Below are positions 14,421-55,402 of a DNA stretch of 64,000 nucleotides, in pieces. The notes below the pieces were generated by a model. That model searched no databases, was not told the origin of the DNA, and worked only from the letters and a program-made list of their open reading frames with translations. Origin of the DNA: a virus (Duplodnaviria > Heunggongvirae > Uroviricota > Caudoviricetes); the IMG/VR virus record IMGVR_UViG_3300031419_000581, one strand, 5' to 3'. Positions within the stretch are counted from its first letter, which is position 1, and each line of letters starts with the position of its first letter. Position numbers and translations under genes: made by a program.

Positions 14421-14528
14421 CCTGAATATATTTATACTTATATTCTACAAGTATATTCGCGTTCCTACAATAAAAGGTTGAATAAAGATAGCATACAAGT
14501 TTATAATATAATAAAAAGAGGAATAAAT

Positions 14529-19607: not shown

Positions 19608-21890
19608 TTATTTGAAATAGTTTCTCTGCTTTTTAGAAATAGATTTTCCTTCAAGTTCTTTTTTTCTTACTGCGGCATGAAGCATTTCTTCAATTTTAGC
19701 ATTAAGTTTTGCATGCTGAATTAAGGCATCTTCATTCCCAGTATAAACGTCAGGAAAACGCTGAGTCAGCCAGCGATAAACAGTAAGTAGTTTTACTTTT
19801 TTCTCTGCATCCAGCAATGCTTCGTCTTTACTGTGATAACTTTCTTTTTCAGTCATAGCTTCTTTAACAATTTCCCAGTCAATAATCTGTCCCTGAGAAT
19901 GACGAATCGCCCAGTTTAACAAAATTTCTTCATCATCAATATCGTTAGAATCGACCGGAGCTGTTGCATAGGAATATTGCTCAGTAATAGAAAGATTATT
20001 AAGATTAACAAGTTTATAAGAACGTTCTATTGCATCAGTCATAGGGCATGCTTTGAAAACAGGATGATTTTTCAACAAGTGATTAGCGAAGAATGATAAC
20101 CATTGTGGAAGAGTGCCACCTAATTTTTCATGCCATAATGCAATCTGATCGGGTAGAGGCTGAACCCACCATTTTAAATCACGAGGAGGCTCGTCTTTTG
20201 AATCAAGAAGCTGCCAGAGCATAGCTTCATCATTATCCGACCATGTCGTCACGCCACCTTCAACAACCCAGCCTTTTCTGCCTGCACGGTTAGCAATTTG
20301 CCACACTTCGGAAGGTTTAAGTAGTCTTTCAACGTCACCATCAAATTTTACAAGTGTTGACAGTACAATACGTTTTATAGGAAGATTTAATCCCAACCCA
20401 ATAGCATCAGTTGCAATCAGATAGTCAGTCTCTCCGTCGCGGAATTTCCTTGCTTCTTCACGTCTGACCTCAGGGGAAAGGTGTCCATAAATAACCGAAA
20501 CTTTGAGTCCTCTTTGTTCAGCTTCTTCTTTCCATGCCAACACATCTTTACGTGAGAATGCAATGATTGCATCACCTTGTTGGACACGTTTCCATGACAT
20601 AAGTGCTTTATCTCGTCTTAACTCTTTTTCTGCTGTGAGTTTAACGACATTCAGTTCATCACCTAAATATTTAACCATACGTTCCACATAGGGTAATGCT
20701 GCCTCAGAACCCGTAAGTACTAATTGATTTGTTGGTGCTGAAAGAACGGCTTGTGTCCATGCCCAGCCACGACCAGGATCCGCAAGAAGCTGAACCTCAT
20801 CAAGAACAGAAGCGCCAACACGTTTGTTCCAGCGAGCCATTTCAACAGTAGAGGAAACAAAAGTGCTACCTAATGAACGGCGTCTTTCTTCACCTGTGAT
20901 AAGATCATTAAGTACGCCTTTTTCGAGTAGGGTCTCATGACCTTCAAGTGCTAAAAGTCGTAAAGGTGCAAGGTAATAGCCACTATCAGCAGCAGTAAGT
21001 ATCTGGAATGAACGATATGTTTTTCCTGTATTCGGTGGTCCCATAAAGAAAGTCCATACACGTTTTTCACTTCTTGCTATTTTAAAATGTTGTTCGAATT
21101 TATCAAAATTAACCAGTTTTTCTGCGGCGATCATTGCTGCTTCTTTTTCCTGACGCTTAATACGTGAGCTTTCTTTTTCAATAAAAGCAGTAAAAGCTGC
21201 CGTTATTTTTTTATGTTCATCACCAGAGAAATAGACCTTAGAAATTGTTTGTGTTAACCAGCTAAGCCATGGTGATTTTTGTGCATTATTTAAAAGGCTG
21301 ACTTTTTCAGACCAAACAGAAAAAATATTCGAATGTAAAAATGAGACAAGTTCTGAAAATTTGTTTTCAACCTGCAATTCTTTTTGAATCTCAGTTGAAT
21401 CGAGTTCTTTTGTATTGTGGTAAGCAAATACCCAGTTTTCAAAGGTTTTTTTAGGAACCGGAATATAAAAGAGTGAATTGAGAACAACAGTACTATCAGA
21501 AAGGTTTTCCAGCCATTCTTTTTTGGTGATAACAGCAACCATATCTTTTTTATTATCTTTGAAGGATACGCCCTCTATAATACGATGAAGTTTAGCTGCT
21601 TCAATCCACTCATTGGTAGCCTGTTCTTTATTAAGTTGATTGATATGTTTTTTGAAGGCATTCAGAACTTTATTCCAGTCTTCTGGTTTTATCCAAAGGG
21701 AATTAACGGATATTTTATCGGTTTGGGAATGATATAACTGAGGGGTCAGGCATGTCCAGCCTTCATTAATTTTACTTTCGTAAAAGGCATTATCTTTTTT
21801 ATTAACTTTTGTGATTCCGTCCAACAGGGGTAATTCAATCCATTCTTTTTCAGTAAGGTCGTCAAAGTTTGTAACACTGGAGAATTTCAT
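19608..21890 (-). CDS. SUV3-like superfamily-2 helicase with an N-terminal extension of about 270 aa
   Basis: Motif I GPPNTGKTY, motif II LDEVQ. C-terminal block VIYGHLSPEVRREEARKFRDGETDYLIATDAIGLGLNLPIKRIVL...QIANRAGRKG matches the SUV3/SUPV3L1 pattern as I recall it (VIYGSLPP...KFN......LVATDAIGMGLNL.I.R.IF...Q..GRAGR). Confidence 0.65.
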   Translation of the reverse strand: MKFSSVTNFDDLTEKEWIELPLLDGITKVNKKDNAFYESKINEGWTCLTPQLYHSQTDKISVNSLWIKPEDWNKVLNAFKKHINQLNKEQATNEWIEAAKLHRIIEGVSFKDNKKDMVAVITKKEWLENLSDSTVVLNSLFYIPVPKKTFENWVFAYHNTKELDSTEIQKELQVENKFSELVSFLHSNIFSVWSEKVSLLNNAQKSPWLSWLTQTISKVYFSGDEHKKITAAFTAFIEKESSRIKRQEKEAAMIAAEKLVNFDKFEQHFKIARSEKRVWTFFMGPPNTGKTYRSFQILTAADSGYYLAPLRLLALEGHETLLEKGVLNDLITGEERRRSLGSTFVSSTVEMARWNKRVGASVLDEVQLLADPGRGWAWTQAVLSAPTNQLVLTGSEAALPYVERMVKYLGDELNVVKLTAEKELRRDKALMSWKRVQQGDAIIAFSRKDVLAWKEEAEQRGLKVSVIYGHLSPEVRREEARKFRDGETDYLIATDAIGLGLNLPIKRIVLSTLVKFDGDVERLLKPSEVWQIANRAGRKGWVVEGGVTTWSDNDEAMLWQLLDSKDEPPRDLKWWVQPLPDQIALWHEKLGGTLPQWLSFFANHLLKNHPVFKACPMTDAIERSYKLVNLNNLSITEQYSYATAPVDSNDIDDEEILLNWAIRHSQGQIIDWEIVKEAMTEKESYHSKDEALLDAEKKVKLLTVYRWLTQRFPDVYTGNEDALIQHAKLNAKIEEMLHAAVRKKELEGKSISKKQRNYFK

Positions 21891-24081: not shown

Positions 24082-24256
24082 ATTATTCTCCTGGATATAT
24101 TCACCAAATTACATAGTAATAAAAAAATTTATAATAGCAATCAGCCTATCCTTTATTTACGTGAAATTTGCCAGTATTTCCATTTTTTTATGATTAAGTA
24201 AGGTGAAGTTTCTAAAATATTTGTTATAATAGAATAAATAAAAGAGGCAAAATAAT

Positions 24257-25969
24257 ATGGCGTTTAGTACACAAGAAAAAAAGATATATAATCTTATCAG
24301 TAAGCCTGAGATAAAAGAAAAAGAAATGAACATGATTATTTCTTTTATTAAAGAAAATCCTGAATTTTTGTTTGTTCAGACAAAAATGAATAGCACAACA
24401 AAAACTTCTTTATTGTTTCATGCAGTAGAACACAATTTATCGCTTGCAGAAAAAATAATAGATGAATGCAATCCTGACATAATTAAAATAACAAACGCCC
24501 AATCTGATAGATGTAATATAGTACATTACCTCGCAAAAAATAAAGAAGGCATAAGTGGTCAATTCATTTTAAATTTATTTAAAGAAGGTCGGCAATTGCA
24601 TTCTGAGAGATCTCAGTTAATGAATGATATTAATATGTTTCTTGACTCCCCTGTTATGCATGCACTTGAAAATGGAAATAATAAAAGAGCAAAAGAAATT
24701 ACGGATCACATTAAAAATAACCTATTAGGTGTTGGGAAAATGTTCAGTGATGAATCCCATATTGTTTATTTAACTGGTAAAAACCAAATGGATATATATT
24801 CAAGTTTTGCAGATAATTTAGCCATGGTTGAGTTTGCAGATAAAAATATTTATCCACTAAAAGACTACCTTAAATCAATAATGTTACCTTATTTTATAAA
24901 AAAAATGTTCAGTAATGATATTGATACGTTCAAAAAAATTACATATTTACACGAAAATGTTTCACAAATTAATGTTAATAAAAATTCACAGAACAAAGAA
25001 AAATTAGAGGAAATTTTTTCGCACTTTGTTAAAAAGACACAATGTGACGCACAAAGTATGGAACATTTTTTAACCTGGTTAATAAAAAATTATGGTGACT
25101 TTGATTTTAAATTGAATAAACCAGAGGCAATAGCACTTTTTCACTCAGATGTTCCATTGGATGAAAGAGTCAAGAAACTAAATGTTTTATTTGAGACATT
25201 TGGAAAAGAATGTTATCCCAGTGCGCTTTACACTGATTACCAGGGGAAATCTTCTAATGTAGATTTCACTATGATTAAATTTATGTTAGAAAAAGATATA
25301 GTGCTAAGTGTGGGAAATTATAAAAAAAATTCAGTATCAGAAGTTTATTTAAATAAATTTATTGACAGCTTTCCTTTTGATATAGAGACCGTTTGTCTTT
25401 TTATTGAGAAACATAAAGCAATTTATCAGCAACCAAATAACACAGCTTTAAATTTACTTTGCAAAGCTTATAATTACCATTATGAGGATCAACAGGAAAA
25501 TGGTATAAAAACCTCAAAAATGAATAATAAAGACGTTATATTTGCATTGTTAGAAAATAATGCAAATGCCCTTTGTAATTATTCACTGAGTCCTTATTTT
25601 GACGTTCCAAAGGCAATGCAGGAAAAGTTTCCAGATACAGAAGAATTTAAAAGAGGATTGTTTGAAAACATCATAGTCAATATTGAAGGAAAAATAAAAA
25701 ATGATATAGCAAAACAATTTAAGAACGTGTGTAAATTTACTTCTTCGGGGAAAATAAATCCTGTTATGATTTTTTTACTTGAAAATGAAAAATTCATAAG
25801 AAATGACCTTCAATGTCAGCAGTACTTGACTAAATTTTTAGAAAAGGAGCATGATATCCCAGAGGAAATTCATGACGTTATGAATTATATGCACAAAATG
25901 TATCTGAATAATAGTTTGAATAAACATGATTTAATGATACCTGATAAAATAGTAAGGAGCAGAATATAA
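24257..25969 (+). CDS. hypothetical protein with ankyrin-like repeats, R-[LIM]-COOH tail family (ends ...DKIVRSRI)
   Basis: 570 aa, AGAGG SD. ANK-like KTSLLFHAVEHNLSLAEKIIDE and DSPVMHALENGNNKRAKEI. Ends RSRI-stop. Its stop overlaps the next start (TAATG). Confidence 0.75.
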   Translation: MAFSTQEKKIYNLISKPEIKEKEMNMIISFIKENPEFLFVQTKMNSTTKTSLLFHAVEHNLSLAEKIIDECNPDIIKITNAQSDRCNIVHYLAKNKEGISGQFILNLFKEGRQLHSERSQLMNDINMFLDSPVMHALENGNNKRAKEITDHIKNNLLGVGKMFSDESHIVYLTGKNQMDIYSSFADNLAMVEFADKNIYPLKDYLKSIMLPYFIKKMFSNDIDTFKKITYLHENVSQINVNKNSQNKEKLEEIFSHFVKKTQCDAQSMEHFLTWLIKNYGDFDFKLNKPEAIALFHSDVPLDERVKKLNVLFETFGKECYPSALYTDYQGKSSNVDFTMIKFMLEKDIVLSVGNYKKNSVSEVYLNKFIDSFPFDIETVCLFIEKHKAIYQQPNNTALNLLCKAYNYHYEDQQENGIKTSKMNNKDVIFALLENNANALCNYSLSPYFDVPKAMQEKFPDTEEFKRGLFENIIVNIEGKIKNDIAKQFKNVCKFTSSGKINPVMIFLLENEKFIRNDLQCQQYLTKFLEKEHDIPEEIHDVMNYMHKMYLNNSLNKHDLMIPDKIVRSRI

Positions 25970-27075
25970 TGTATAGTAATCAATCATTAGAAGAATATTA
26001 TAATGGAAAATTAGAAGGGACTTTGGATATTTTTGCAAAATTGCGTGAAAAAAATGTTTCAAAAGAAGCGATAATAGAATTGTTTTATAAAGATTTGGAT
26101 TCTGAGAAGCTGAAAAAAGAATTTGAAGACCTATTAAATTATTTTGCTGCATGTGAGTTAATGCCGAAAACAATAGACAAGTATAAGGGCCAGGACATTC
26201 TTTTTTATTCTGATAAAGTCAATACAGCTAATTTTATTCACGAACTAGAGTTATTATTACAAGAGGCAATCGCTGAAAAACCAGAATTTTATAATGATTA
26301 CTTTGAACATTTAATAAAACTAAACGATCATGGTTTTTATCCAGAAAAACGCATTATAGATTCGTTCGCCACCATACTCACAGAAAGAAATGTTTCATAT
26401 AAAGACTTACTTACTGAAAAATTAATTGAAGGTATTGATAATTTTGAAAGAATAAACACTATTTTATATTTTCAGGATTCAACATCAGTTATAGATAATT
26501 ACCTGGTAAAAACTGAAATAAATGACGATATATTATTATTTTATATGCTGAATAGTCCTGAATTCAAATATCGTCCAGGCATATCAAATTTTTTAAAGCA
26601 TGCTGATACTGATTATTTGTTAAATCTTCGTTCATCAACTAACCAAAATTTATTGATGACATTATTGAAAATAGTGGATAAAGATCTGAAAAACAGAATT
26701 TCTTTTAAAACAACCAAGGGAATTGAAAGTAAGGAACGAAGTGATATCTATGAAGTGATAAAAAACTTAATAGAAAAATGTAAAGATTTCGAAAATTATA
26801 AAGATGATAAAGGTAATAATATAACCTATTATATGGGTAATAACATATTATTGTTAGAAGAATTTTACGTTTCGTTGAAAGAAATAAACAACTATCAGGC
26901 ATTATTCCTTAAAGAAAATAATAAAGGACTCAGTGCTTATGATTGTCTGATAAAAAACAGTGAAAGTAAAAAATCTGAAAACGCCGAATCATTAATTATT
27001 GATATTGAGAAGCAGATTCTAAAAAATCAAATTCCTCCCGATAATATCAGTAAAATGAAAGTTAACAGACTTTAA
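25969..27075 (+). CDS. hypothetical protein, R-[LIM]-COOH tail family (ends ...SKMKVNRL)
   Basis: 368 aa, translationally coupled to 24257..25969. C-terminal IDIEKQILKNQIPPDNISKMKVNRL-stop. Confidence 0.75.
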   Translation: MYSNQSLEEYYNGKLEGTLDIFAKLREKNVSKEAIIELFYKDLDSEKLKKEFEDLLNYFAACELMPKTIDKYKGQDILFYSDKVNTANFIHELELLLQEAIAEKPEFYNDYFEHLIKLNDHGFYPEKRIIDSFATILTERNVSYKDLLTEKLIEGIDNFERINTILYFQDSTSVIDNYLVKTEINDDILLFYMLNSPEFKYRPGISNFLKHADTDYLLNLRSSTNQNLLMTLLKIVDKDLKNRISFKTTKGIESKERSDIYEVIKNLIEKCKDFENYKDDKGNNITYYMGNNILLLEEFYVSLKEINNYQALFLKENNKGLSAYDCLIKNSESKKSENAESLIIDIEKQILKNQIPPDNISKMKVNRL

Positions 27076-38256: not shown

Positions 38257-38532
38257 TTAAAGATATTGAAAATCTTCGTCTAAAATATAAAATTCATTGG
38301 TTTCCAGTGCGAGGTTAACTGGTGCTGGTGAACCTTCTTCACTGATAACTCTCATAGGGGTTTTGGTGCTTGAACAAAACATGATAGATCGTAAGAGTTC
38401 ACGAAATTTTTTTGGATTTTCAAGTTCAATAATATGTTTACTGCCTTCTTTTCTTAATGACACAGGCAACTGATGTTCCACCTCAGCATCGTCAAAAAAT
38501 GAAACTTTAAATTGATTGTTATTGTCAGACAT
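38257..38532 (-). CDS. hypothetical small protein
   Basis: 91 aa, AAGGAGA SD. No family recognised and no tail. Confidence 0.6.
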   Translation of the reverse strand: MSDNNNQFKVSFFDDAEVEHQLPVSLRKEGSKHIIELENPKKFRELLRSIMFCSSTKTPMRVISEEGSPAPVNLALETNEFYILDEDFQYL

Positions 38533-38668
38533 GTTGATAATCTCCTTGTAATTATATATGTCTTTACTTATAACAATTAATAATTAAAAATCAACTTTTT
38601 GAGATATGTATTTGTAATGAATAACAAGAAAAGATATAATTAACGTATATATATAAGAGGATAATAAA

Positions 38669-40795: not shown

Positions 40796-40945
40796 TTATT
40801 CCCACTCATCATCTTCTGAATAATCGATATCGTCATCACTCATAGCTTCTTCTGCAAGTTTGCCCCATACGTCTGAATCGCTATCCAGTTGAGCATCCCA
40901 TTTTTGAGATTGTTCCTGTGCAGAATCTTCTTTTTTAATCGTCAT
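40796..40945 (-). CDS. small acidic protein upstream of the toxin-like gene (possible antitoxin)
   Basis: Below the ORF-track cutoff. My translation is MTIKKEDSAQEQSQKWDAQLDSDSDVWGKLAEEAMSDDDIDYSEDDEWE (49 aa). AAGGA SD 8 nt upstream. Its stop lies 6 nt before the ATG of 40355..40789. Confidence 0.45.
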   Translation of the reverse strand: MTIKKEDSAQEQSQKWDAQLDSDSDVWGKLAEEAMSDDDIDYSEDDEWE

Positions 40946-41009
40946 GTAAACGTATCCTTATTAGTGTATATAAAACGATTATAACAAAAAAAAATGTTAT
41001 CAGCAAGAA

Positions 41010-41037
41010 TTACATGCTTTTAAAAAAATGATATAAT
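41010..41037 (+). promoter_or_regulatory. sigma70 promoter (extended -10) for 41063..42214
   Basis: TTACAT (41010-41015), 16-nt spacer containing TG, TATAAT (41032-41037). Confidence 0.55.
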
Positions 41038-41062
41038 AGATCAAATAACAGGAGTATGTAAT

Positions 41063-42214
41063 ATGAATTTAATAACCGCCGAAGAAATTAATGAGGCAAT
41101 GCTACAAGAAGTTTATGCAGGAAACTCATATAATTTGAGGAAAATACTGGAAAGTGAATATATAAATAACTGGCTTGATTCTGAATATTCTATGTCTGCT
41201 AAACCTACTGTTAATCCTGTATTACTCTCAGCTTCACTTTTTGATGGATTAAGTTGTCTTAAAGAGTTTGTTTATCATTATAGTGATGTTTTGAAGTGGA
41301 CATTTAAAGAAGAAAATGAAAAACAAAGTCAGCGATTAAATTTACTTTCTCTTTCAATATTGAATAAAAATATGGCAGTGATTGATTTTATCGCAGAGCA
41401 GGAAGCTTTTACAGAAATACTCAATATGTCTGATAGCTTTAACGTAAGTCCATTAGCAATCCTGTCCAATGATGGCGATGTCGAATTCTTCAAAGAAATA
41501 GTTAACCTTGCGGAGGAAAAAAAGAGAAATAAGCCCATTGATATTTATGAAAATAATAAAATATTATATATTCTCGGATATAATGCGATTCAAAGAATTG
41601 ATAAAAAAGAGAATTTTTTAGAAATGATAGATTTCGCAATTAAAAAAGGCTATGCTTTTGGTATCGAAAATGGCTTCCATGGAAACTATCATAAAGATAA
41701 GTTTCAAAATTTTTTGAGCAATATGGTGTCATTAATTAACGATAATAGAAAAAAAGGAGATTCTTTTGAAATTTTTAACGAAAAAATGGAGACCCTTTTA
41801 AGTATACACACTCGTTATAATGCCATTTATAACATTAACAGTTCTTTTTCTCATAAGCTGGGACAGAACATTCATTGTGCATTTGCAAGCAGTAGCCAGA
41901 ATTTTATAGAAAGAAAAGACTATCTTGAAGGATTTAAAAGCAGAATGGATGAATATTTGACAGAAAAGCAAACAGATAAGTTAAAGCGAATATCAAGTAA
42001 AGTAATTGCCCTATGGGAAAAATTAGATTCAGAAGAAAAAAAAGATTTAATGATTTCAGGTTTTTCCAAAGATTTTTTATCTGATGTTTTTAAAAGTATT
42101 CAAAAAAATAAGTTCAATGATTTAAATGTATTGCTGGAAAAATATGAATTGGTTAAAAAAACCAATGAGTCTAAAAATCATGATATTGTTTACAGTAAAT
42201 CAGTAAGGATATAA
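41063..42214 (+). CDS. hypothetical protein with ankyrin-like repeats, R-[LIM]-COOH tail family (ends ...VYSKSVRI)
   Basis: 383 aa, AGGAG SD. ANK-like VSPLAILSNDGDVEFFKEIVNL. C-terminal LLEKYELVKKTNESKNHDIVYSKSVRI-stop. Confidence 0.75.
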   Translation: MNLITAEEINEAMLQEVYAGNSYNLRKILESEYINNWLDSEYSMSAKPTVNPVLLSASLFDGLSCLKEFVYHYSDVLKWTFKEENEKQSQRLNLLSLSILNKNMAVIDFIAEQEAFTEILNMSDSFNVSPLAILSNDGDVEFFKEIVNLAEEKKRNKPIDIYENNKILYILGYNAIQRIDKKENFLEMIDFAIKKGYAFGIENGFHGNYHKDKFQNFLSNMVSLINDNRKKGDSFEIFNEKMETLLSIHTRYNAIYNINSSFSHKLGQNIHCAFASSSQNFIERKDYLEGFKSRMDEYLTEKQTDKLKRISSKVIALWEKLDSEEKKDLMISGFSKDFLSDVFKSIQKNKFNDLNVLLEKYELVKKTNESKNHDIVYSKSVRI

Positions 42215-42241
42215 AAAAAAGAGAGCATAGCTCTCTTTTTT
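42214..42241. terminator. bidirectional rho-independent terminator
   Basis: A8-GAGAGC-ata-GCTCTC-T6, between convergent genes. Confidence 0.85.
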
Positions 42242-42256
42242 AATGGTTAAAATAAA

Positions 42257-42808
42257 TTATTCATGGTCTGGCTGCGGAGCCGGAGCCGGTGGAGGAGTAG
42301 GTTCACCTGCACGTGGCGAAGGCGGCATTGAATCACGTTTTTCTTCCATCCCTCTTTCTGGTCCTTTTTTAATTCTGTCCTGCATGGACTTGAATTTTTG
42401 TCTTTGTTCAGGCGTTAAGACCTGATAAATTTCGTGATCTGTTTTTGCACGATCTACTGCCCAGTCTGCGGCTTTATCTTTTTGATCGTCAATAATTGAT
42501 TTTGCTTTGTCGTCAGAGTAGTCGTCTGACCATGCTAGATCATGTAATTTTTTCTGCACATCCTGCATGTGTTCAAATGCTTCCTTGTTGTCATCGCGTG
42601 AGTCGGTCAGGATTTTATTAATTTTGTCCTGTTGCTCTTTACTGAGATCTAATCCCGCGAAAGGAGTTTTATGCCCCATAGAGCCAGGTTTAACGTGGTG
42701 AGGCTGAGGTGGCTGATTCGTTTGTTCAGCGGCATATACGGCGCTGTTAGCACCAACGATTAATCCTACAAAAAGTGCTAAGCTGGTTAGTTTTTTTGAT
42801 TTAGTCAT
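42257..42808 (-). CDS. periplasmic Spy/CpxP-family (LTxxQ) protein with a Pro-rich C-terminal tail
   Basis: Signal peptide MTKSKKLTSLALFVGLIVGANSAVYA/AE. LSKEQQDKI and LTPEQRQKF motifs typical of Spy/CpxP/ZraP. The C-terminus PPSPRAGEPTPPPAPAPQPDHE is a local GC-rich patch. Confidence 0.7.
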   Translation of the reverse strand: MTKSKKLTSLALFVGLIVGANSAVYAAEQTNQPPQPHHVKPGSMGHKTPFAGLDLSKEQQDKINKILTDSRDDNKEAFEHMQDVQKKLHDLAWSDDYSDDKAKSIIDDQKDKAADWAVDRAKTDHEIYQVLTPEQRQKFKSMQDRIKKGPERGMEEKRDSMPPSPRAGEPTPPPAPAPQPDHE

Positions 42809-42987
42809 AATAAGTCCCTCATTGTTGTTAATGTAATATTCTGTGTTTCAGTAAGAAGCATACTATACTATTATTTGTAAAAAAGGTTGAAGAAAGTGTG
42901 AAGAAAATAAGGAATTAAAAAAAATATAAATTGATTTTGGAATAATTCTTATTTATTATTAACTAATTCAATAATTAAGGTATAAAT

Positions 42988-43392
42988 ATGATAAATAGCC
43001 AGATACATATTTTAATGCAGTCTTTAAATACTGCGAATGATGATATAGACAAAGAGATATTAATAAAAGAATACAGGCGTGTATTAAAAAAATTTGCAAC
43101 TGAAATACTTAGACTTACCTCGTCAGATTTTATTTTATTGAATAGCAAAGGTGGTTGGGCTTCTGAAGCAGAAGTTATTCTGCATGCTGATAATATCTAT
43201 ATTTCAGTGTGTCCAAGAAAAGGTATGAGCAAAGAAGATCATCAGGTATTATATCGAAAATGCAAAGACAGAAACGATAATTGCGGCGGTATGAATCATT
43301 TTATTTCTGCTAAAGAAGCTTTTTCAGAAAATGGTTTGGACAAATTTGCTACAAAAATTGCAATGATTAGTGGAGAAAAAACAGGCTCCTGA
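42988..43392 (+). CDS. hypothetical protein
   Basis: 134-aa ORF with AAGGT SD. No family recognised and no tail. Confidence 0.55.
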   Translation: MINSQIHILMQSLNTANDDIDKEILIKEYRRVLKKFATEILRLTSSDFILLNSKGGWASEAEVILHADNIYISVCPRKGMSKEDHQVLYRKCKDRNDNCGGMNHFISAKEAFSENGLDKFATKIAMISGEKTGS

Positions 43393-43401
43393 TAGAGCCT
43401 G
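43375..43401 (-). terminator. rho-independent terminator of the sensor-regulator operon
   Basis: CAGGCTC-ctgata-GAGCCTG 7-bp stem. The T-run is present only on the minus strand (A6 at 43376-43381). It overlaps the 3' end of 42988..43392. Confidence 0.65.
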
Positions 43402-43409
43402 CTTCAAAA

Positions 43410-44066
43410 TTAGCCTAATTGATATCCACGGCCGTAAACGCCTTTAATCATTTCGTCATCGGGTCTTATTTCCATGAGCTTTTTGCGTAAATTTTTAACA
43501 TGACTATCCACGGTTCTGTCACTTACTACACGTTTGTCTTGGTAAAGTTTATCCAGAAGTTTTTCACGTGCAACCGGATAGCCTACATTCTGAGAGAGTG
43601 TATAAATTAAACGATATTCAACAGGCGTAAGATCAAGTCTGGTTTCATCAAGCCATACGATTTCTTTGTCATGATCAATTTTTAATCCTTTAAAGTTTTC
43701 ACTTGCAACTGTGCTTTCTCTTAACCTTGCTTTAACTCGTGCTACTACTTCACGGAAACTATCGAAAGGTTTACAGATATAATCATCTGCACCTAATTCA
43801 AGGCCAAGTATACGATCAACTTCTTCACTTTTTGCACTGATAAGAATAATAGGAATATCATATTTTGCTTTTATGTCTTTACATAAAGTCAATCCATTAG
43901 TCCCCGGAAGCATGATATCCAGAAGAATCAGATCGGGTTTATTTTTCTGAATTTCAGGTAATACGTCACTGCCATTATGAATTTGCTTTGTTTTATAGCC
44001 TGCATCGTGAAGATAATCACTTAATAAATTAGCTATTCTTTTTTCGTCATCCACTATAAATATCAT
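43410..44066 (-). CDS. baeR: OmpR-family response regulator, BaeR-like
   Basis: Receiver domain IFIVDDE...PDLILLDIMLPGTNGLTLCKDIK...LGLELGADDYICKPF closely tracks E. coli BaeR as I recall it ([23 protein letters not shown]...LGLEIGADDYICKPY). C-terminal winged helix ending VYGRGYQLG. Confidence 0.7.
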   Translation of the reverse strand: MIFIVDDEKRIANLLSDYLHDAGYKTKQIHNGSDVLPEIQKNKPDLILLDIMLPGTNGLTLCKDIKAKYDIPIILISAKSEEVDRILGLELGADDYICKPFDSFREVVARVKARLRESTVASENFKGLKIDHDKEIVWLDETRLDLTPVEYRLIYTLSQNVGYPVAREKLLDKLYQDKRVVSDRTVDSHVKNLRKKLMEIRPDDEMIKGVYGRGYQLG

Positions 44067-44077
44067 AAGATAAACCT

Positions 44078-45586
44078 CTATTTTTTATTTGCATATTTAG
44101 GTAAAATTACATGTAGACACAGTCCGTCCCATTCAGAACGTTCTGCTTCTATAAATCCCTGGTGCTTATCAACAATACCTTTACATAAAGTTAAACCTAA
44201 ACCGGATCCGCCATATGCCTTGCTTCTGGAACTTTCAAGTCGATAAAATCGTTCAAACAAGTTGGGCAGTAATTCTTCTGGCACACCCGGCTTTGAATCT
44301 TTAATACTTATTTTTACTTCTTTCTTGCTATCATAAACCTTTACCACTATACGACCATTAGGATTAGTATAACGATAAGAATTTTCCAATAAATTGGTCA
44401 AAAGTTGCGTAATACGTTGTTGATCTGCCCATATTTTAATATCACTATTATCATAATGAAAATAGAAGTCCAGATTTTTTTGTTGAAAACGTGTTTCAAA
44501 AGCCTGAATAACGTTTTCCATGGTATAAATAAGGTCAACATTTGAAAAAGTATATTTCCATCCATCGGCATCCATAAGAGCAACGTCATAAACGTCATTA
44601 ATTAACCCATTAAGGTTTTCTACATCATTAAGTAATGCTTCAAGATTATGTGCTGTTGGTTTTCTTATGCCATCAAGCATTGCCTGAAGCTCACCTTTGA
44701 TAATGGTAATAGGTGTCCTGAGTTCATGAGAAATATCAGCCATCATAGACTTTCTGAATATCTCATTACCTTCAATCGTTTGAACCATTTTATTAAAGTC
44801 TTTCGCCAGCTGTCCAAATTCGTCATTTCTTTCTGCAACCACAACGCCTGATTTATAATCTCCTTCGGCTAATGCATGCGTGGCTTTCGCAAGAGCCTTG
44901 ATGGGCTTTAATATTGTTTTGGAAATCCAGTAGCAGAAAAATGCCGCCAGAATACAACCAATGATAGTTATCCACAGCATGTTGGCAATCTGTGTAGCAG
45001 CAAATCTTTCATCCAGACCAGTTAATACTTCTTCTTTCATCTTTTCAGTTACAAGCCAGCCAATAACATGCTGATTAAAATAAAGAGGATTCCATTGAGC
45101 TTTATCTGAATCAGGAATAAACCCCGCAATAATATGGTTTTTATCAGCAGAAACAAGAGCAAGGAAAGGTTTATTTAAAGCATTTAAATTAGCTGGTTTT
45201 TTAATCATATCCATATAGGCTGGATTAAAAGTATCATAGATATCAGTATTCAGAGAAGGTTCTTCTGGATATGACGGAACCTCTTTGTTTAAAATCATAA
45301 GTCTCCACCATAAATCCTGATCTTCTCTTAAAATTTGCCAGTTATTATCATGTGTAAGGTATACATTTTCAAGAGATTTACTCCATGAAGAGACGCGTTG
45401 TTCCTCACGTTTATTAACATAATCTTTAAAGCCAGTATTGAAATTATATCGAACGGCCATTTCCATAATGAAGACAAATGCGAAAACAAAAGCAAGAAAT
45501 TTAATAAATAGTTGTGTAGTTAACCCCCAAAGTGCAGGAGGTGAAGGAGACCAATACATTTTCTTTTTTTTGCTTGATTTATCCAT
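44078..45586 (-). CDS. baeS: sensor histidine kinase, BaeS-like
   Basis: Two TM segments flank a periplasmic domain. HAMP domain (ILKPIKALAKATHALAEGDY). H-box ADISHELRTPITIIKGE. N-box LLTNLLENSYRYT. G-boxes IKDSKPGV and GGSGLGLTLCKGIV. The kinase-then-regulator order matches baeSR. Confidence 0.7.
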   Translation of the reverse strand: MDKSSKKKKMYWSPSPPALWGLTTQLFIKFLAFVFAFVFIMEMAVRYNFNTGFKDYVNKREEQRVSSWSKSLENVYLTHDNNWQILREDQDLWWRLMILNKEVPSYPEEPSLNTDIYDTFNPAYMDMIKKPANLNALNKPFLALVSADKNHIIAGFIPDSDKAQWNPLYFNQHVIGWLVTEKMKEEVLTGLDERFAATQIANMLWITIIGCILAAFFCYWISKTILKPIKALAKATHALAEGDYKSGVVVAERNDEFGQLAKDFNKMVQTIEGNEIFRKSMMADISHELRTPITIIKGELQAMLDGIRKPTAHNLEALLNDVENLNGLINDVYDVALMDADGWKYTFSNVDLIYTMENVIQAFETRFQQKNLDFYFHYDNSDIKIWADQQRITQLLTNLLENSYRYTNPNGRIVVKVYDSKKEVKISIKDSKPGVPEELLPNLFERFYRLESSRSKAYGGSGLGLTLCKGIVDKHQGFIEAERSEWDGLCLHVILPKYANKK

Positions 45587-45588
45587 AT

Positions 45589-46125
45589 TTATAATCTTCT
45601 CTGTTGAAAATTTGAGTTATTGTAAAGGGTATAGGCTTTTACTGTATTTTTCAATATTTTCTTCTCTTTATTTAGCTGATAAGCATTAAAAAGTGCTTTA
45701 CCAAAAACAGACTTGAGATAATCTGACTTATTATGACGATTCAGGCAGTAAGGCTGTTTGTTTTTGTAAAAAACAGGTAATCCTTCAAAATATTGAGCAA
45801 TCATAGCTTGATTATTTGCTTTGCCAGCAAATAATTTGCGTATTTCATGCAACTCTTTATTTATAGCTGACTCAGACTTTGAATTATATTCTATAAAATT
45901 AAATGAAATATCTTTTTTTATGTTTAAAAGAGGGCGCTGAATAAAAATGGTTTCAATTTCCTGAAAATTATCTAATAATTTAATTAAGCGTAAATGAAAA
46001 CACATAATATTATAAGCAGCAAACAGACGTGTATTGTTTTTTAATTCATAATAACTTGTATCGTTTTCCTGGTTAAGAAAAAAAATTATTTGCTGAATAT
46101 TGGTTGGTAACAGTTTATGTAACAT
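45589..46125 (-). CDS. hypothetical protein, R-[LIM]-COOH tail family (ends ...SNFQQRRL)
   Basis: 178 aa. C-terminal NKEKKILKNTVKAYTLYNNSNFQQRRL-stop. Its stop lies 2 nt before the baeS-like ATG. Confidence 0.65.
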   Translation of the reverse strand: MLHKLLPTNIQQIIFFLNQENDTSYYELKNNTRLFAAYNIMCFHLRLIKLLDNFQEIETIFIQRPLLNIKKDISFNFIEYNSKSESAINKELHEIRKLFAGKANNQAMIAQYFEGLPVFYKNKQPYCLNRHNKSDYLKSVFGKALFNAYQLNKEKKILKNTVKAYTLYNNSNFQQRRL

Positions 46126-46209
46126 AAAGACCTATCAAAAGTTTATAGAAATAGTATAATGAGAATACTACAAAAAAATACAAAATAAAATTTTAATCGG
46201 AAAAGAGAT

Positions 46210-47031
46210 ATGAATGATATAGAAATATTACATCAAATAACAGCAGAAATACCTGTATTAGGCGATTACGTTAGAAAAATAAATAAAGAATACGATTTTG
46301 AAGATTCATGTATAAACCAAAATCCATTGGTAGCTCTTATAAGATTAAGAAACAGAAAAATATTAGATAAAGATGATTTAAGTTTATTTTTAGCAGAAGA
46401 GTTGTTGAAATCAAAAATAGAGAAAATAGACGTTTTTGATAATGGCACCAGTGTCATGAACCTGTTGCATTTTTCCTGTTTGCATATAAAAGATACTCAA
46501 ATGTGTAAATTGATTTTGGAATATTGCCCAGAGCAAATAAATATGCTGACAAAATGTAAAAATCCAGAAAATCCACTTGCTTATGCACTAGGTCAAAATG
46601 CTTATGAATATAACGGGCCTCATCCTATTCTGAACAGATTATTAAAATCAGGTGCAAATATTCATGAAGATATAGCAAAAAAAGCGCTGTGGAAAGCTTA
46701 TACATCGTATGGTCAAGTAAAACATCTAAGGAAATGGAATGAATGGATTATTAGTAATGGAATCGATCCATATATGAAATATCAACATGGTGAGACAATA
46801 TTTCACCACATGGCTTCAGGAAAAGAACTAGATCCTCTTTTAGATATGTGGAAAAAAGGTTTTTTAAATATTGATATAGAAGCCAATACTGGACAAACGG
46901 TAAGAAAGTTATTAACGTCCACCTCAAATAAGCAAAAATCTTTTTTTCAGAATTATATAAAGCTGGAAAAGGAAAGTTTAAATAAAGATATAAATAAAAA
47001 GATATCGACTTCCAAAATCAATAGAATATGA
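46210..47031 (+). CDS. hypothetical protein with ankyrin-like repeats, R-[LIM]-COOH tail family (ends ...STSKINRI)
   Basis: 273 aa. ANK-like GTSVMNLLHFSCLHIKDTQMCKLILEY and ENPLAYALGQ...ILNRLLKSGANIHE. C-terminal LEKESLNKDINKKISTSKINRI-stop. Confidence 0.75.
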   Translation: MNDIEILHQITAEIPVLGDYVRKINKEYDFEDSCINQNPLVALIRLRNRKILDKDDLSLFLAEELLKSKIEKIDVFDNGTSVMNLLHFSCLHIKDTQMCKLILEYCPEQINMLTKCKNPENPLAYALGQNAYEYNGPHPILNRLLKSGANIHEDIAKKALWKAYTSYGQVKHLRKWNEWIISNGIDPYMKYQHGETIFHHMASGKELDPLLDMWKKGFLNIDIEANTGQTVRKLLTSTSNKQKSFFQNYIKLEKESLNKDINKKISTSKINRI

Positions 47032-48435: not shown

Positions 48436-48439
48436 AATA

Positions 48440-48469
48440 AAAAAACAGAGGATGAGTTCTCTGTTTTTT
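48440..48469 (+). terminator. rho-independent terminator
   Basis: ACAGAG-gatgagtt-CTCTGT followed by T5. Confidence 0.7.
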
Positions 48470-48512
48470 ATTTTAGGTTATAATAGTAGAAATACAAAAA
48501 GAGTAAAAAAAT

Positions 48513-49586
48513 ATGAATGAAGAACTTAACAGGCTAATAGAAAAAAATACCACTGGAATATTTGGTCAAAAAGGAAGTAAGCTAACATTTGGCAATAAAG
48601 ATTTACTGAATTTTATTGAAAAACAAAAAGATCATGCGACAAAATCAGATTTTTTTTATCAGGTTATGGACGCTCATATTATAGAAAAAAAAGGCATTCA
48701 AAACATTCGCAAGCTTATGAAGGAGTTTTCAAGTAATCATGATCTGAATGACAATATTGCAGTAGAGTATATAAAAGAGCATGTTGCGAAAAAATATAAA
48801 GAGAACGACATTAATGAGATATTACATAGTTTACAACTATTAAAAGATGAAGTCGATTTTAAAATATCTGATTACGATTTATCTTATCAGTTTATGTCTT
48901 CGGCTCGCCTAAGAAAAGAACAAATTCAGTCAGTAAAGCCTGAGTTTGCAGTCATGGCATTAGCATATTTAAGCGAGAATCTTAGTTTATGGAATAGTTT
49001 TAATGGTCATGAACAAACACGATTTTTGAAAGATTGTATTTCACATATGCCTTATGTTGGCAGTCAATATTATCGAAAACATGTTAATGTGTTAATAAAA
49101 AAAGCAGACATTAACTGGTTTGATAACAAAACTGATAATTTATTAATAATCTGTTGTAATCTTGATCAAATTAAAATATCGAGTTTTATTATTTCACGAA
49201 TGAAGAAAGAAATACCAGAAAATCTTATGGATACAAGTGAACTTTTTGCAAATGTATCCCGTTCAGATAGCGTATCTCCTGTCTACGACTTTTTAATGGC
49301 TAACAGCAATATACAAAAAATCTATGAACAAAATAGTATAAATAAAGAAAAACTGAATATAGAATTAATTGCTGAGAAAAGACAATCATTTAAAAATCAG
49401 GATGTCGATATTATTGAATATTACATAAATCATATGAATTATGAAAAACGTATATCTGATGCTATTTCGGTATGGTTTGAGAAAAATAATTTACCAGAAA
49501 TAGAAAGAATAAAAATAGAAAATATGCTTTTGAAAAAAGATTCAGAAAGTATAAAATTTAATGTAAAAACAACAAATAGATTATAA
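48513..49586 (+). CDS. hypothetical protein, R-[LIM]-COOH tail family (ends ...NVKTTNRL)
   Basis: 357 aa. C-terminal IKIENMLLKKDSESIKFNVKTTNRL-stop. Confidence 0.75.
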   Translation: MNEELNRLIEKNTTGIFGQKGSKLTFGNKDLLNFIEKQKDHATKSDFFYQVMDAHIIEKKGIQNIRKLMKEFSSNHDLNDNIAVEYIKEHVAKKYKENDINEILHSLQLLKDEVDFKISDYDLSYQFMSSARLRKEQIQSVKPEFAVMALAYLSENLSLWNSFNGHEQTRFLKDCISHMPYVGSQYYRKHVNVLIKKADINWFDNKTDNLLIICCNLDQIKISSFIISRMKKEIPENLMDTSELFANVSRSDSVSPVYDFLMANSNIQKIYEQNSINKEKLNIELIAEKRQSFKNQDVDIIEYYINHMNYEKRISDAISVWFEKNNLPEIERIKIENMLLKKDSESIKFNVKTTNRL

Positions 49587-50381: not shown

Positions 50382-51512
50382 ATGAGAAGCGATATGAAAA
50401 AAGAATATATAGTTAGCCAAAAAGATAATGATTTTATTAAAGCGGTAAAAAATGGAGATTTAGAAAGTGTTATGAACTTTGTCAATAATGAGGACATTAA
50501 CATTAATGCAATATCACCACAATTTGGAAATGGTGATTTGTCAGCAATCTATATTGCATTAGGGAATGGGCATAATGATATTGTTGAATTTTTGCTGGAC
50601 ATGGGAGCCTGTATAGATGTAAAAAATATGAGTGAAAATCATTTATTACATCGTGTAAATAACAAAACATCATTCGAAATTGCAAAAAAAATAATTGAGA
50701 AAGAAACACCGCAATCACTAATGAGTATTGAAAATGCATTTGGTGTAAATATAATGCGCAGTATGTTGTGGTCATTTACTCCCTTAAATATAGTACAATT
50801 TTTTTATGATAAGGTGAAACCTTTTAACAGTAATTTCAGATTTAACTCATATTTAACTGATCTGGAAGTGAATTCGCCACATTATGACCTTTATTTTAAC
50901 CAGGCTTTATCTTTTTGTAGAGAAAATAACATTTCATTACAGGGTGATGATTTTCTCTTTATATGTTTCATGAAAAAGAATAAAGACGTTATAAAAAGAA
51001 TAAAAGAGTATTATCCTGAGGAGCTGACACCCCTTATACAAGAATTTAAGCATAATATATCTAAAAAAAATAAAATGTTAAGTAAATATATCTCTATTTC
51101 AGATATGTTCAGTATTTATCCTTCAAAAGAAGATTGGTGTGATAAAAATATTGATATCTGTAATCATGCAATAAAAAATAATCAACCTCATATGTTAGCT
51201 TATATGTTAAAGAATGGTTTATCTCCGAATGAAAGACCTCTATTAAAATTACTTTTAGAAGAATCAAAAAATACCAGTTTCAAAAATGCAGATAAATTAT
51301 CTGACGTTAAATATGGTTTTAATGAGCTGATTGCACATAAAGATCTTAAAATTAACAGACCTATGGAATTGTTGATACAAATGTATATTTCTTCTGATGA
51401 AGGTGATGAAAGTGTAAAATCAGCATTAAAGCAGAGAGTTGCGCTACTGGAAAAAGAAAGGCTTGAGTCAACAATAGCAACGTCAAAAAATAAATTGGCT
51501 AACAGGATATAA
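50382..51512 (+). CDS. ankyrin-repeat protein, R-[LIM]-COOH tail family (ends ...KNKLANRI)
   Basis: Clear ANK repeats at the N-terminus (DNDFIKAVKNGDLESVMNFVNNEDININA; LSAIYIALGNGHNDIVEFLLDMGACIDVKN). C-terminal LEKERLESTIATSKNKLANRI-stop. An alternative start is at 50394. Confidence 0.8.
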   Translation: MRSDMKKEYIVSQKDNDFIKAVKNGDLESVMNFVNNEDININAISPQFGNGDLSAIYIALGNGHNDIVEFLLDMGACIDVKNMSENHLLHRVNNKTSFEIAKKIIEKETPQSLMSIENAFGVNIMRSMLWSFTPLNIVQFFYDKVKPFNSNFRFNSYLTDLEVNSPHYDLYFNQALSFCRENNISLQGDDFLFICFMKKNKDVIKRIKEYYPEELTPLIQEFKHNISKKNKMLSKYISISDMFSIYPSKEDWCDKNIDICNHAIKNNQPHMLAYMLKNGLSPNERPLLKLLLEESKNTSFKNADKLSDVKYGFNELIAHKDLKINRPMELLIQMYISSDEGDESVKSALKQRVALLEKERLESTIATSKNKLANRI

Positions 51513-51515
51513 ATT

Positions 51516-52739
51516 ATGTCATTTGAAAAAATAAAAGAAATGAATGCAGAACAAATTAAAGATGTGATAAAAAATAATCCTGTTATTCTTTATCAAATGA
51601 TAGATGAAAAAAATCAGGATAGAGTAATCTGGAATAAAATTATATCAGCAGACCCAACAATATTGGATAATATGCATCCTAAATTTCTTCACCCTTTATT
51701 ACATCATGCTATGAAGCAGTATGAATATGATACCGTCTATTTTTTATTAGATTACTCAGATAAAATAAACCATCTCAATGGTGAGCAATTTTATAATTAT
51801 CATTTTTTGACAGAAGTAGATAAGGATACCGATATTATTGCATATAAACATATTTATAATAAATTCCAAAAGAAGCATCCTACGGATGTTAAAAGCATAA
51901 TTTCTGATGTAGGCGATAATTTATTGAGTAATGCCATTCTTAACAATAATTATGAAGTTGTTAAATTTTATAAAGAATTAGGAATAGCTCCTAATCAAGA
52001 AACTCAGTATAAAAATGCACTGTTTGCATTAGTTGGAACTTGTATGATTAATAGCATGGTAGATGAAAACTATAAAATATTTATTGAAAATACAATTAAG
52101 TTATTTGAAAAAAATGATGTTGAAGCTGATGTGAAAAACAGTGATAACAAGAATTTTTTTGAAGCGGCATGGGAAGATAATCCAGTCTTAGTTCATTATG
52201 TATTAAAGCACAAGGCAGACGTTTTCAAAGAACAGATTGAAGATTTTGCAACCCGATTGGAAAAAAATAAAAGAACAGCCTATATTTTTTTACCAAGACA
52301 AAGTTTAGAAACAATCCAGTTTTTCGAGAATAAAATTAACTGGAATTATTATTTGTCAGAAGAAAATTTAATTGATTTTTTTGCTATGGGTTTTTATTCA
52401 AATCCAAAAGCCTTTAATTATTTTATTAAAAATATGTCGGACATATTCAATAATAAAGACTATCAAGAAAAAATCATGTTGAAATTTATGGAAAATACCA
52501 AAGAATATAATAAAGAAGATATGGAAAAATATATTATTCCTGAATTTAGACTGATTACAGAAGATCCTGAATTATTGAGAAAAATAATCGTAAAAGGTCA
52601 TAACCAAAATAAAAATAATGCCAACCTAATTGAGTCGCTTGAATTTATACTTGCAAACACTGAAAAAAAATCATTAAATAATATTCTTGATACTAAGAAT
52701 AATGAATTTAAAACAAAGATTAAACTAAACAGAATTTAG
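51516..52739 (+). CDS. hypothetical protein with ankyrin-like repeats, R-[LIM]-COOH tail family (ends ...KTKIKLNRI)
   Basis: 407 aa, 3 nt after the upstream stop. ANK-like GDNLLSNAILNNNYEVVKFYKELGIAPN and DNKNFFEAAWEDNPVLVHYVLKHKADV. C-terminal TEKKSLNNILDTKNNEFKTKIKLNRI-stop. Confidence 0.75.
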   Translation: MSFEKIKEMNAEQIKDVIKNNPVILYQMIDEKNQDRVIWNKIISADPTILDNMHPKFLHPLLHHAMKQYEYDTVYFLLDYSDKINHLNGEQFYNYHFLTEVDKDTDIIAYKHIYNKFQKKHPTDVKSIISDVGDNLLSNAILNNNYEVVKFYKELGIAPNQETQYKNALFALVGTCMINSMVDENYKIFIENTIKLFEKNDVEADVKNSDNKNFFEAAWEDNPVLVHYVLKHKADVFKEQIEDFATRLEKNKRTAYIFLPRQSLETIQFFENKINWNYYLSEENLIDFFAMGFYSNPKAFNYFIKNMSDIFNNKDYQEKIMLKFMENTKEYNKEDMEKYIIPEFRLITEDPELLRKIIVKGHNQNKNNANLIESLEFILANTEKKSLNNILDTKNNEFKTKIKLNRI

Positions 52740-55039: not shown

Positions 55040-55402
55040 ATGAGAAAATTATTACTTATCTGTTTATTTATCACACAGTTTACTTATGCTGCTATAATCC
55101 CCGATCAATACTGGAATCTTAATTTAAGTCGTGAGCAGATTTATACACTCAATATGATAGGAGATAAGTATGAAAGAGCGATACGTTATCAGGAAAGTAT
55201 AATGATAAACTTAAGCAGAAGTGTAACTGCACTAAATAATATCAAAAATAAAACTCCCGAACAACTTCAGTCTCTTTCATTAAGTATGGAAGGATTAAGT
55301 CTTGCTAATGACAGACGTGGAATTTTGATTATGCAAAAAAATGCAGAAATGCAAAAATATCTTACACCGGATCAATTAAATAAACTTTATCAGTACAGGT
55401 AA
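55040..55402 (+). CDS. small periplasmic LTxxQ-motif protein (Spy/CpxP-like)
   Basis: Signal peptide MRKLLLICLFITQFTYA/A. LSREQIYTL and LTPDQLNKL motifs. 120 aa. Confidence 0.55.
   Translation: MRKLLLICLFITQFTYAAIIPDQYWNLNLSREQIYTLNMIGDKYERAIRYQESIMINLSRSVTALNNIKNKTPEQLQSLSLSMEGLSLANDRRGILIMQKNAEMQKYLTPDQLNKLYQYR

Follow-up and report, generated by a model that had tools for sequence, protein, structure and literature searches.

A 64,000-nt stretch of DNA from the IMG/VR virus record IMGVR_UViG_3300031419_000581 (hereafter the window; G+C content (GC) ~31%) carries on its minus strand a BaeSR-Spy module that is minimal, physically compact and free of efflux genes, and that belongs to a known type of envelope-stress system. 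The module comprises a BaeS-like sensor histidine kinase (44078-45586, 502 aa), a BaeR-like response regulator of the OmpR/PhoB family (43410-44066, 218 aa) and a Spy-like periplasmic LTxxQ protein (42257-42808, 183 aa). Directly ahead of the kinase gene lies a fourth minus-strand gene (45589-46125, 178 aa), whose product ends in ...NFQQRRL, a form of a C-terminal tag that recurs on 20 other proteins of the window. Our reading, to which we give a probability of about 0.7, is that the BaeSR-Spy module is ancestral, that its coupling to a tagged gene is an accident of gene insertion and genome compaction, and that it gives no indication of BaeR control over the tagged family. A first-pass annotation, made from the sequence alone, had described the same four open reading frames (ORFs), with gaps of 2 nt between the tagged gene and the kinase gene and 11 nt between the kinase and regulator genes. 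The ORF translations, including the QQRRL end, and the spacings read from the sequence agree with it. That annotation had gone on to suggest a link between the BaeSR regulon and the tagged family, and this second step is the one that we do not follow.

The BaeSR-Spy module and its predicted operator

The kinase contains the Pfam domains HAMP, HisKA and HATPase_c, an H-box reading SHELRTP, and two hydrophobic transmembrane (TM) segments, at about residues 22-46 and 198-222, that enclose a periplasmic loop of ~150 aa. Its best NCBIfam family is BaeS, at 361 bits over the full length including the periplasmic sensor, compared with 155-161 bits for CpxA. The top NCBIfam match is the BaeS_SmeS model, AdeS/AdeR score lower, and the named database homologues are all BaeS proteins from Gamma- or Betaproteobacteria (32-36% identity). 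The regulator carries Response_reg and Trans_reg_C domains and matches BaeR at 262 bits, against 196 for the next NCBIfam family and 155 for CpxR. Its top match in the PDB is E. coli BaeR (4b09, 213 bits; runner-up 137 bits), with which it shares 53% identity, and the stretch DRTVDSHVKNLRKKL of its recognition helix is near-identical to DRTIDSHIKNLRRKL of the E. coli protein. The suggestion in the first-pass annotation that the kinase-first order and the sequence fit baeSR rather than cpxRA is thus borne out by these scores, which support a BaeSR-type, not a CpxRA-type, envelope-stress system.

The Spy-like protein lies 601 nt from baeR, close to the 600 bp estimated earlier, and is encoded by a gene that appears monocistronic. 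It passes the Pfam LTXXQ model PF07813 (41.7 bits; cut-off 24.3) and scores 88 bits with the NCBIfam Spy model as against 34-48 bits with three CpxP models. A Sec signal peptide is present, and the LTxxQ motifs LDLSKEQ and VLTPEQ are conserved across the clade and in a named Pantoea Spy. Its Pro-rich tail, called unusual in the first-pass annotation, is found in all clade members and also in the Pantoea protein. A second small LTxxQ protein had been proposed at 55040-55402 on the plus strand. This small protein has a signal-peptide-like N-terminus and holds only the strings LSREQ and LTPDQ. It shows no LTXXQ, Spy or CpxP profile match in Pfam or NCBIfam even at E<=1, and it aligns with the Spy-like protein at a BLASTP E value of 0.3, so that its membership of the family is unsupported.

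We compared the locus with seven related metagenomic lineages, whose loci were fetched via homologues of the tagged protein, Spy and BaeS, exact look-ups of the window's own proteins having returned no contig. The identity of their BaeS to that of the window is 86% in L005, ~60% in L007 and L011, and 43% in L012 and L013/14; the L008 lineage is likewise placed at ~60%. The genes baeS, baeR and spy are adjacent in L005, L007, L011, L012 and L013/14, and L008 shows the baeR-spy part, its contig stopping inside baeR. On this comparison, baeS-baeR-spy is the ancestral conserved unit of the clade.

Upstream of spy, in a region that contains TTCTTCAcacTTTCTTCA, we predict a BaeR-type operator at 42881-42916 on the minus strand. 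It consists of direct repeats phased at 11 bp, AATTCCTTATT, TTCTTCACACT and TTCTTCAACCT, followed by TTTT, and the repeats overlap the -35 position. The perfect direct repeat TTCTTCA-N4-TTCTTCA occurs a single time in the 64-kb window, at spy. A position weight matrix (PWM) built from 4-6 related sites scores 29-38 bits there, compared with 18 bits for the best shuffle, and nothing in the rest of the window rises above that shuffle.

Across seven aligned lineages, the spy intergenic DNA is 59% identical overall. Its core CTTTnTyC-N4-CTTTCTTCA-N2-CTTTT is nearly invariant while the flanks diverge, and the operator co-occurs with baeSR immediately upstream in every lineage (for example at 8169-8187 in L012, 8171-8189 in L013, 1950-1979 in L007 and 2309-2338 in L011). 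The proximal repeat TTTCTTCA never varies, together with the ..CTTTT that follows. The distal repeat varies, reading TTTATTC, TTTCTCC or TTTCTTC, and this variation could serve as a natural mutagenesis series for BaeR binding. A third phased repeat further upstream is seen in several lineages. We also observe that the operator is kept where BaeS is only 43% identical to that of the window. Elsewhere in the window, the stretch TTGTATGCTATCTTTATTCAACCTTTT at 14472-14498 on the minus strand has a 3' half that is identical at 15 of 16 positions to the proximal half of the spy box; it lies ahead of the tagged gene 13050-14420, and its total score does not exceed the shuffle range.

Overlapping -10 candidates of the spy promoter (TAGTATAGTAT) lie at 42860-42870 on the minus strand. 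In each of the six lineages measured, the proximal repeat begins exactly 29 nt before a TAnnnT hexamer. With this offset the repeats would sit near -52 and -41 and overlap the -35 element, as in class II activators of the OmpR/PhoB type. In E. coli, the BaeR site at mdtA (TTCCTCCATTT, TTCTCCCTTATTGGC) has TAnnnT hexamers at +24 and +27, and that at spy (TCTCCATCAAA, TTTTCTTTTTT, TCTCCATAATTGGC) has one at +29; the TTCT(T/C)C repeats of the window resemble both sites. For BaeR, TTTTTCTCCATDATTGGC and TCTNCANAA have been published as consensus sequences, together with a conserved CTNCA element (PMC3799227), and E. coli BaeR has spy and mdtABCD-baeSR as its direct targets (PMC7657598). Because the box is unique and conserved, its sites are E. 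coli-like and the recognition helix is nearly unchanged, the predicted control of spy by BaeR is well supported in silico. By analogy with E. coli, BaeS would sense periplasmic or envelope damage through its ~150-aa loop and phosphorylate BaeR. Phosphorylated BaeR would then bind the phased TTCT(T/C)C repeats over the -35 element and switch on the periplasmic chaperone Spy.

The tagged gene ahead of baeS

The tag, carried by about one-third of the window genes, is the unusual feature of this window and a separate matter from the BaeSR module. Among ORFs of at least 100 aa, 21/60 end in x-R-[L/I/M], as against 0/102 shadow ORFs. An E-[KR]-x-[IL]-L-like element lies 13-32 residues from the end in 11/21 tagged proteins compared with 2/39 untagged ones, and a K/N/S-rich tail precedes the tag. 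Since the Arg, Leu, Ile and stop codons vary, the signal resides at the protein level. Examples of tagged genes are 1233-2279(-), 24257-27075(+), 32316-35177(+), 46210-47031(+), 48513-49586(+), 50382-52739(+) and 55918-58364; housekeeping proteins are without the tag. It is also present in the relatives L001/L005, L007, L009 and L011, and is missing from all 14-15 ORFs that were read near the module in each of the more distant L012/L013. The tag looks like an export or targeting signal, and the literature search made for a comparable C-terminal signal returned nothing relevant.

The 178-aa protein encoded ahead of baeS has both tag elements (NKEKKILKN...QQRRL) and ends in NKEKKILKNTVKAYTLYNNSNFQQRRL; its homologues end in QQRRL, QQNRL or KKRI. 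It has neither a signal peptide nor a TM segment and is cytoplasmic by sequence. Searches of Pfam, NCBIfam and further family collections gave no family match, and no known fold was found. The AlphaFold2 (AF2) model has a predicted local distance difference test score (pLDDT) of 74, with the tail disordered from residue 156. A whole-library profile search with the tagged protein returned one remote homologue, P0037, which shares 31% identity over 134 residues and ends in KKRI. Two further matches, P0038 and P0039, were dismissed as repetitive, unrelated sequences, and a profile scan of JGI metagenome contigs with the tagged-protein alignment gave no match. Compared with lineage L002, the tagged gene shows a ratio of nonsynonymous to synonymous substitution (dN/dS) of 0.27 with dN 0.13, and baeS shows 0.03 and 0.018, respectively. 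The tagged gene is therefore real, under purifying selection and fast-evolving.

At the junction of the tagged gene and baeS (45581-45600 on the minus strand; AGAAGATTA-TAA-AT-ATG), the sequence reads AGA AGA TTA TAA AT ATG, with the stop codon 2 nt from the baeS start and the purine-rich AGAAGA 10 nt before the baeS ATG. The gap is likewise 2 nt in L002 and is 1 nt in L005/L001. A terminator scan found no terminator-like site on that strand between the two genes. The same scan missed the hairpin directly after baeR (43376-43405, minus strand), which folding found and verified at -17.7 kcal/mol (z -4.45), followed by U6; the terminator claimed at this place by the first-pass annotation is thus there. 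No sequence feature predicts operons better than a very short gap between genes on one strand. Because the 1-2 nt gaps are conserved, the intergenic terminator is missing and a strong terminator follows baeR, we consider a tricistronic tagged-baeS-baeR transcript likely, with the tagged gene as its first cistron, much as had been proposed.

Such a transcript may start from a TATACT hexamer at 46153-46158 on the minus strand, 27-32 nt before the ATG of the tagged gene, which we infer to be the -10 element of the unit. The hexamer, which falls within the 84 nt that separate two divergent genes (46126-46209), is unchanged in L002 and corresponds to TATAAT at the aligned position in L005. TATAAT is common among the tagged genes, as described below, and the sequence points to a plain sigma-70 promoter of that type for the unit. 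The sequence TTCTCATTATAC upstream of the tagged gene was considered as a BaeR box and rejected: it resembles TTCTCCATDAT minus one base, it is not kept in L005, and it scores below shuffles.

Abutment of the tagged gene on baeS is restricted to the window, L002 and L005/L001. The baeS gene of L011 follows a non-coding leader of at least 89 nt with a TATAAT and an AAGGGG ribosome-binding sequence, and in L012/L013 a divergent, untagged 157-aa gene lies upstream. This 157-aa gene was rejected as an inverted tagged homologue; its translation shows no resemblance by eye and has no tag. The homologue P0037 stands in L009 among other tagged genes, with no kinase nearby, and is not next to baeS. An ancestral linkage to a 357-aa gene was rejected too, the neighbour of P0037 in L009 being not homologous to the window gene 48513-49586. 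The missing abutment in L011, L012 and L013 and the unlinked P0037 argue that the module is old and the tagged first cistron a recent insertion in one sub-clade, and that the tagged family is not bound to baeSR. We propose that two lineage-specific genes, the tagged gene and a 134-aa gene described below, entered the module in the sub-clade of the window, L002 and L005/L001. The tagged-baeS-baeR transcript would then start at a plain sigma-70 promoter and end at the hairpin after baeR, and the coupling would at most put baeSR under a promoter of the tagged-gene type.

Several observations weigh against this account. The scores of all three module proteins fall under the NCBIfam equivalog cut-offs: BaeS reaches 361.7 against 500 (NF012163) and 361 against 603 (NF007837), BaeR 262 against 380 bits, and Spy 88 against 174 bits. 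BaeS is still the best kinase family by ~150 bits with full-length coverage; we therefore call the proteins "-like" and do not present them as certified equivalogs. In the 84 nt ahead of the tagged gene, a scan for consensus promoters flagged nothing, and promoter-like matches in the region are no commoner than in shuffles. The operator scan covered only 64 kb of the genome, and a PWM drawn from so few related sites could overlook degenerate BaeR sites. Because the contigs of L007 and L008 stop short of the 5' end of baeS, the distribution of the abutment rests on few lineages. Finally, there are internal promoter candidates for baeSR within the tagged gene, a conserved TTGAAA-N15-TATAC(C/T) and a TACAAT seen in the window only, and synonymous change is depressed at these candidates.

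These last candidates bear on a real though clearly less probable alternative, in which the genes are merely packed together and baeSR would owe most of its transcription to a promoter of its own within the final ~90 nt of the tagged gene, with little or no read-through. At the DNA level no other part of the gene is as conserved as this 3' stretch, with column identity at 89% among lineages whose protein identity is 49%. Between the window and L002, its last 28 codons hold 1 synonymous change of 16.3 sites, a proportion of synonymous differences (pS) of 0.06 compared with 0.29-0.55 elsewhere. The conserved TTGAAA and TATAC(C/T) are found 43-68 nt ahead of the ATG of baeS, and in L011 baeS clearly has its own TATAAT promoter. 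Against packing alone, read-through is expected anyway as no terminator separates the genes, a spacer of 15 nt separates TTGAAA from TATACY, and the scan did not flag this element. The stretch also encodes the bipartite tag, and K/N/E codons are strongly biased, which together explain much of the DNA conservation. After a per-amino-acid codon correction, identical codons number 27 observed against 22.1 expected in one comparison and 16 against 12.9 in another, a modest excess of codon conservation at the 3' end of the tagged gene. We did not accept the synonymous-site dip as proof of an internal promoter, since biased codon use and the constraint on the tag as protein both weaken it. A promoter or a translation-initiation region for baeS may be embedded in the tagged gene, and would be compatible with read-through from upstream.

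BaeR and the tagged family

If BaeR reached beyond spy, its boxes would be looked for upstream of the tagged genes. In the 64-kb window, the PWM found no match above shuffles upstream of the tagged-baeSR unit (84 nt), of the supposed second LTxxQ gene or of the 20 other tagged genes. A shared direct-repeat box, for which the first-pass annotation had proposed to search the tagged promoters genome-wide, is therefore not seen in those of the window. A k-mer comparison of tagged and untagged upstream regions likewise gave no direct repeat. What it did give was a perfect TATAAT, found in 13/16 tagged as against 6/32 untagged regions (Fisher 4.6e-5, 55 tests) and usually 25-40 nt before the ATG; examples are the regions 2280-2410, 14421-14528, 24082-24256, 38469-38668, 40863-41062 and 48436-48512. 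TTGAGA occurred in 5/16 tagged regions versus 0/32 untagged ones. These patterns suggest that any regulatory arrow would run in reverse, from a sigma-70 promoter of the tagged-gene type to baeSR.

One elaborate and rather unlikely scenario would have the sub-clade wiring BaeSR into a host-interaction programme. A single promoter would serve both BaeSR and a tagged effector that is exported, so that the dosage of kinase and regulator follows the effector, or a missed, degenerate BaeR site would feed host-derived envelope stress back on the effector; the tag would mark substrates of an undescribed export or host-targeting route.

That BaeSR regulates the tagged effector-like family outright, with the tagged first cistron as part of its regulon, was the proposal of the first-pass annotation. 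CpxR and PmrA do control Dot/Icm effectors in Legionella and Coxiella. One tagged gene is indeed physically coupled to baeSR and has been kept in three lineages, and the tagged gene 13050-14420 has, 52-78 nt upstream, a weak half-site, CTTTATTCAACCTTTT, that scores within the shuffle range. The sole box above shuffle level stands at spy, and the common signal of the tagged regions is TATAAT rather than a direct repeat. The abutment is derived, the outgroups have BaeSR-Spy and no tag on the 14-15 ORFs read, and the tagged-protein homologue P0037 is unlinked to baeS. We therefore regard a BaeR regulon of tagged genes as unlikely, and prefer the ancestral module with an accidental neighbour.

At spy itself, the repeats might be bound not by the adjacent BaeR but by another OmpR/PhoB-family regulator, such as a CpxR-like protein encoded elsewhere. 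E. coli spy is under both CpxR and BaeR (PMC7657598). The core TTCT(T/C)C of the window repeats fits BaeR sites (CTNCA/TCTNCA), and the box keeps company with the adjacent baeSR in every lineage. The recognition helix is conserved with E. coli BaeR, which again speaks for the adjacent regulator. The CpxR consensus, GTAAA-N5-GTAAA, is not what the repeats resemble, and we judge another regulator very unlikely.

It is highly improbable that the tagged protein is a cytoplasmic accessory or modulator partner co-translated with BaeS and not an exported effector, as the 1-2 nt spacing typical of co-translated partners in three lineages and the lack of a signal peptide or TM segment might suggest, given that its gene evolves ~7-10x faster than BaeS and is missing before an intact baeS in L011, L012 and L013, that the L009 homologue sits among tagged genes with no kinase, that the same bipartite tag is on 20 unrelated proteins, and that the protein has no known fold or family.

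Surroundings of the module and comparison with known systems

The 601-nt interval between baeR and spy holds a conserved plus-strand gene that had gone unmentioned in the first-pass annotation. This 134-aa gene (42988-43392), to which we could assign no family in Pfam, NCBIfam or further family searches, is 61% identical to its L005 copy with a dN/dS of 0.19. It is confined to the window/L005 sub-clade and missing between baeR and spy in L007, L008, L011, L012 and L013. At its 3' end, the final codons are complementary to the terminator hairpin of baeR, and its AF2 model is poor (pLDDT 63). Since the gene diverges from spy over the 179-nt region that bears the box, it might share BaeR-type control. 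On the other side of spy, a hairpin with A/T runs on both sides was read directly at 42213-42240. It has no assigned strand, is common to spy and the convergent gene 41063-42214, and has an equivalent flagged in L005.

Window proteins are encoded on a metagenomic contig of 157 kb and in a small number of Logan/ENA assemblies, and the GC of the clade is 27-37%. A full-text search with the SRA/ENA run accessions turned up no paper. A BaeS scan of GTDB species genomes returned two irrelevant kinases only, and as far as the scans reach, the lineage is absent from these genomes and from the JGI contigs. The window ClpP is closest to that of E. coli (364 bits, versus 287-294 for Coxiella, Francisella and Neisseria). 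In our view the source is probably an uncultured gammaproteobacterium rich in ankyrin and orphan genes. The window also encodes a Suv3-type DExQ helicase (19608-21890, minus strand), a GH5 cellulase-like protein (17735-18910, plus strand), a HerA/TrwB-like P-loop ATPase (7029-8363, plus strand) and a strong ankyrin-repeat protein (9471-11231, plus strand). Such a combination is unusual among gammaproteobacteria and is in keeping with life in association with a host. Scans of 1-64000 turned up no tRNA gene, and no Rfam family passed threshold.

Among known systems, the PmrAB and CpxRA regulons of Legionella and Coxiella are alike in idea only, in that a response regulator and effector-like genes occur in a host-associated-looking genome. 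In those regulons a shared regulator box lies upstream of many effectors, whereas the tagged genes here share no BaeR-type box. For the tagged family our result is mainly negative; its regulator or export route is to be sought elsewhere, and the shared TATAAT promoters are the lead.

The CpxRA-CpxP system resembles the window locus in setting an envelope-stress two-component system beside an LTxxQ-family periplasmic protein, which CpxRA induces. It differs in that the regulator comes first in cpx and the kinase comes first here, and in that the window box is not a GTAAA repeat. The profiles favour BaeS/BaeR by ~100-200 bits, and Spy over CpxP by the scores given above. With the efflux regulators BaeSR, AdeRS and SmeSR of Acinetobacter and Stenotrophomonas the kinase shares its top model, BaeS_SmeS, with AdeS/AdeR matching at lower scores. 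Unlike in those systems, no efflux genes are near, and the conserved target is a chaperone gene.

The closest counterpart is BaeSR of E. coli and Salmonella, with the same kinase-then-regulator order, a full-length BaeS profile match and a Spy-family target gene. The similarity to E. coli extends to BaeR itself, at 53% identity with a near-identical recognition helix, to direct TTCTCC-type repeats ~10-11 bp apart just upstream of the -10 element, and to the position of baeSR as distal cistrons behind a non-regulatory gene. Unlike in E. coli, that leading cistron is an orphan tagged gene and not an efflux gene. There is no mdtABCD or other RND (resistance-nodulation-division) pump gene among the family-scanned window ORFs, which include most of the large ones, and baeSR has no RND or MFS (major facilitator superfamily) gene as a neighbour, either here or in any of the relatives. 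In contrast to mdtABCD-baeSR of E. coli, which is autoregulated from the mdtA promoter, there is no BaeR box at the operon promoter, and autoregulation is therefore not evident. The module proteins of the window also remain below the NCBIfam equivalog cut-offs for BaeS, BaeR and Spy. In E. coli, spy lies ~340 kb away, whereas it adjoins baeR in the whole clade described here. This clade would thus hold a minimal, phylogenetically footprinted BaeSR regulon (baeS-baeR-spy) with a ready-made operator in a reduced, uncultured lineage, and the keeping of this minimal regulon suggests that Spy induction, not efflux control, is the retained part of the system.

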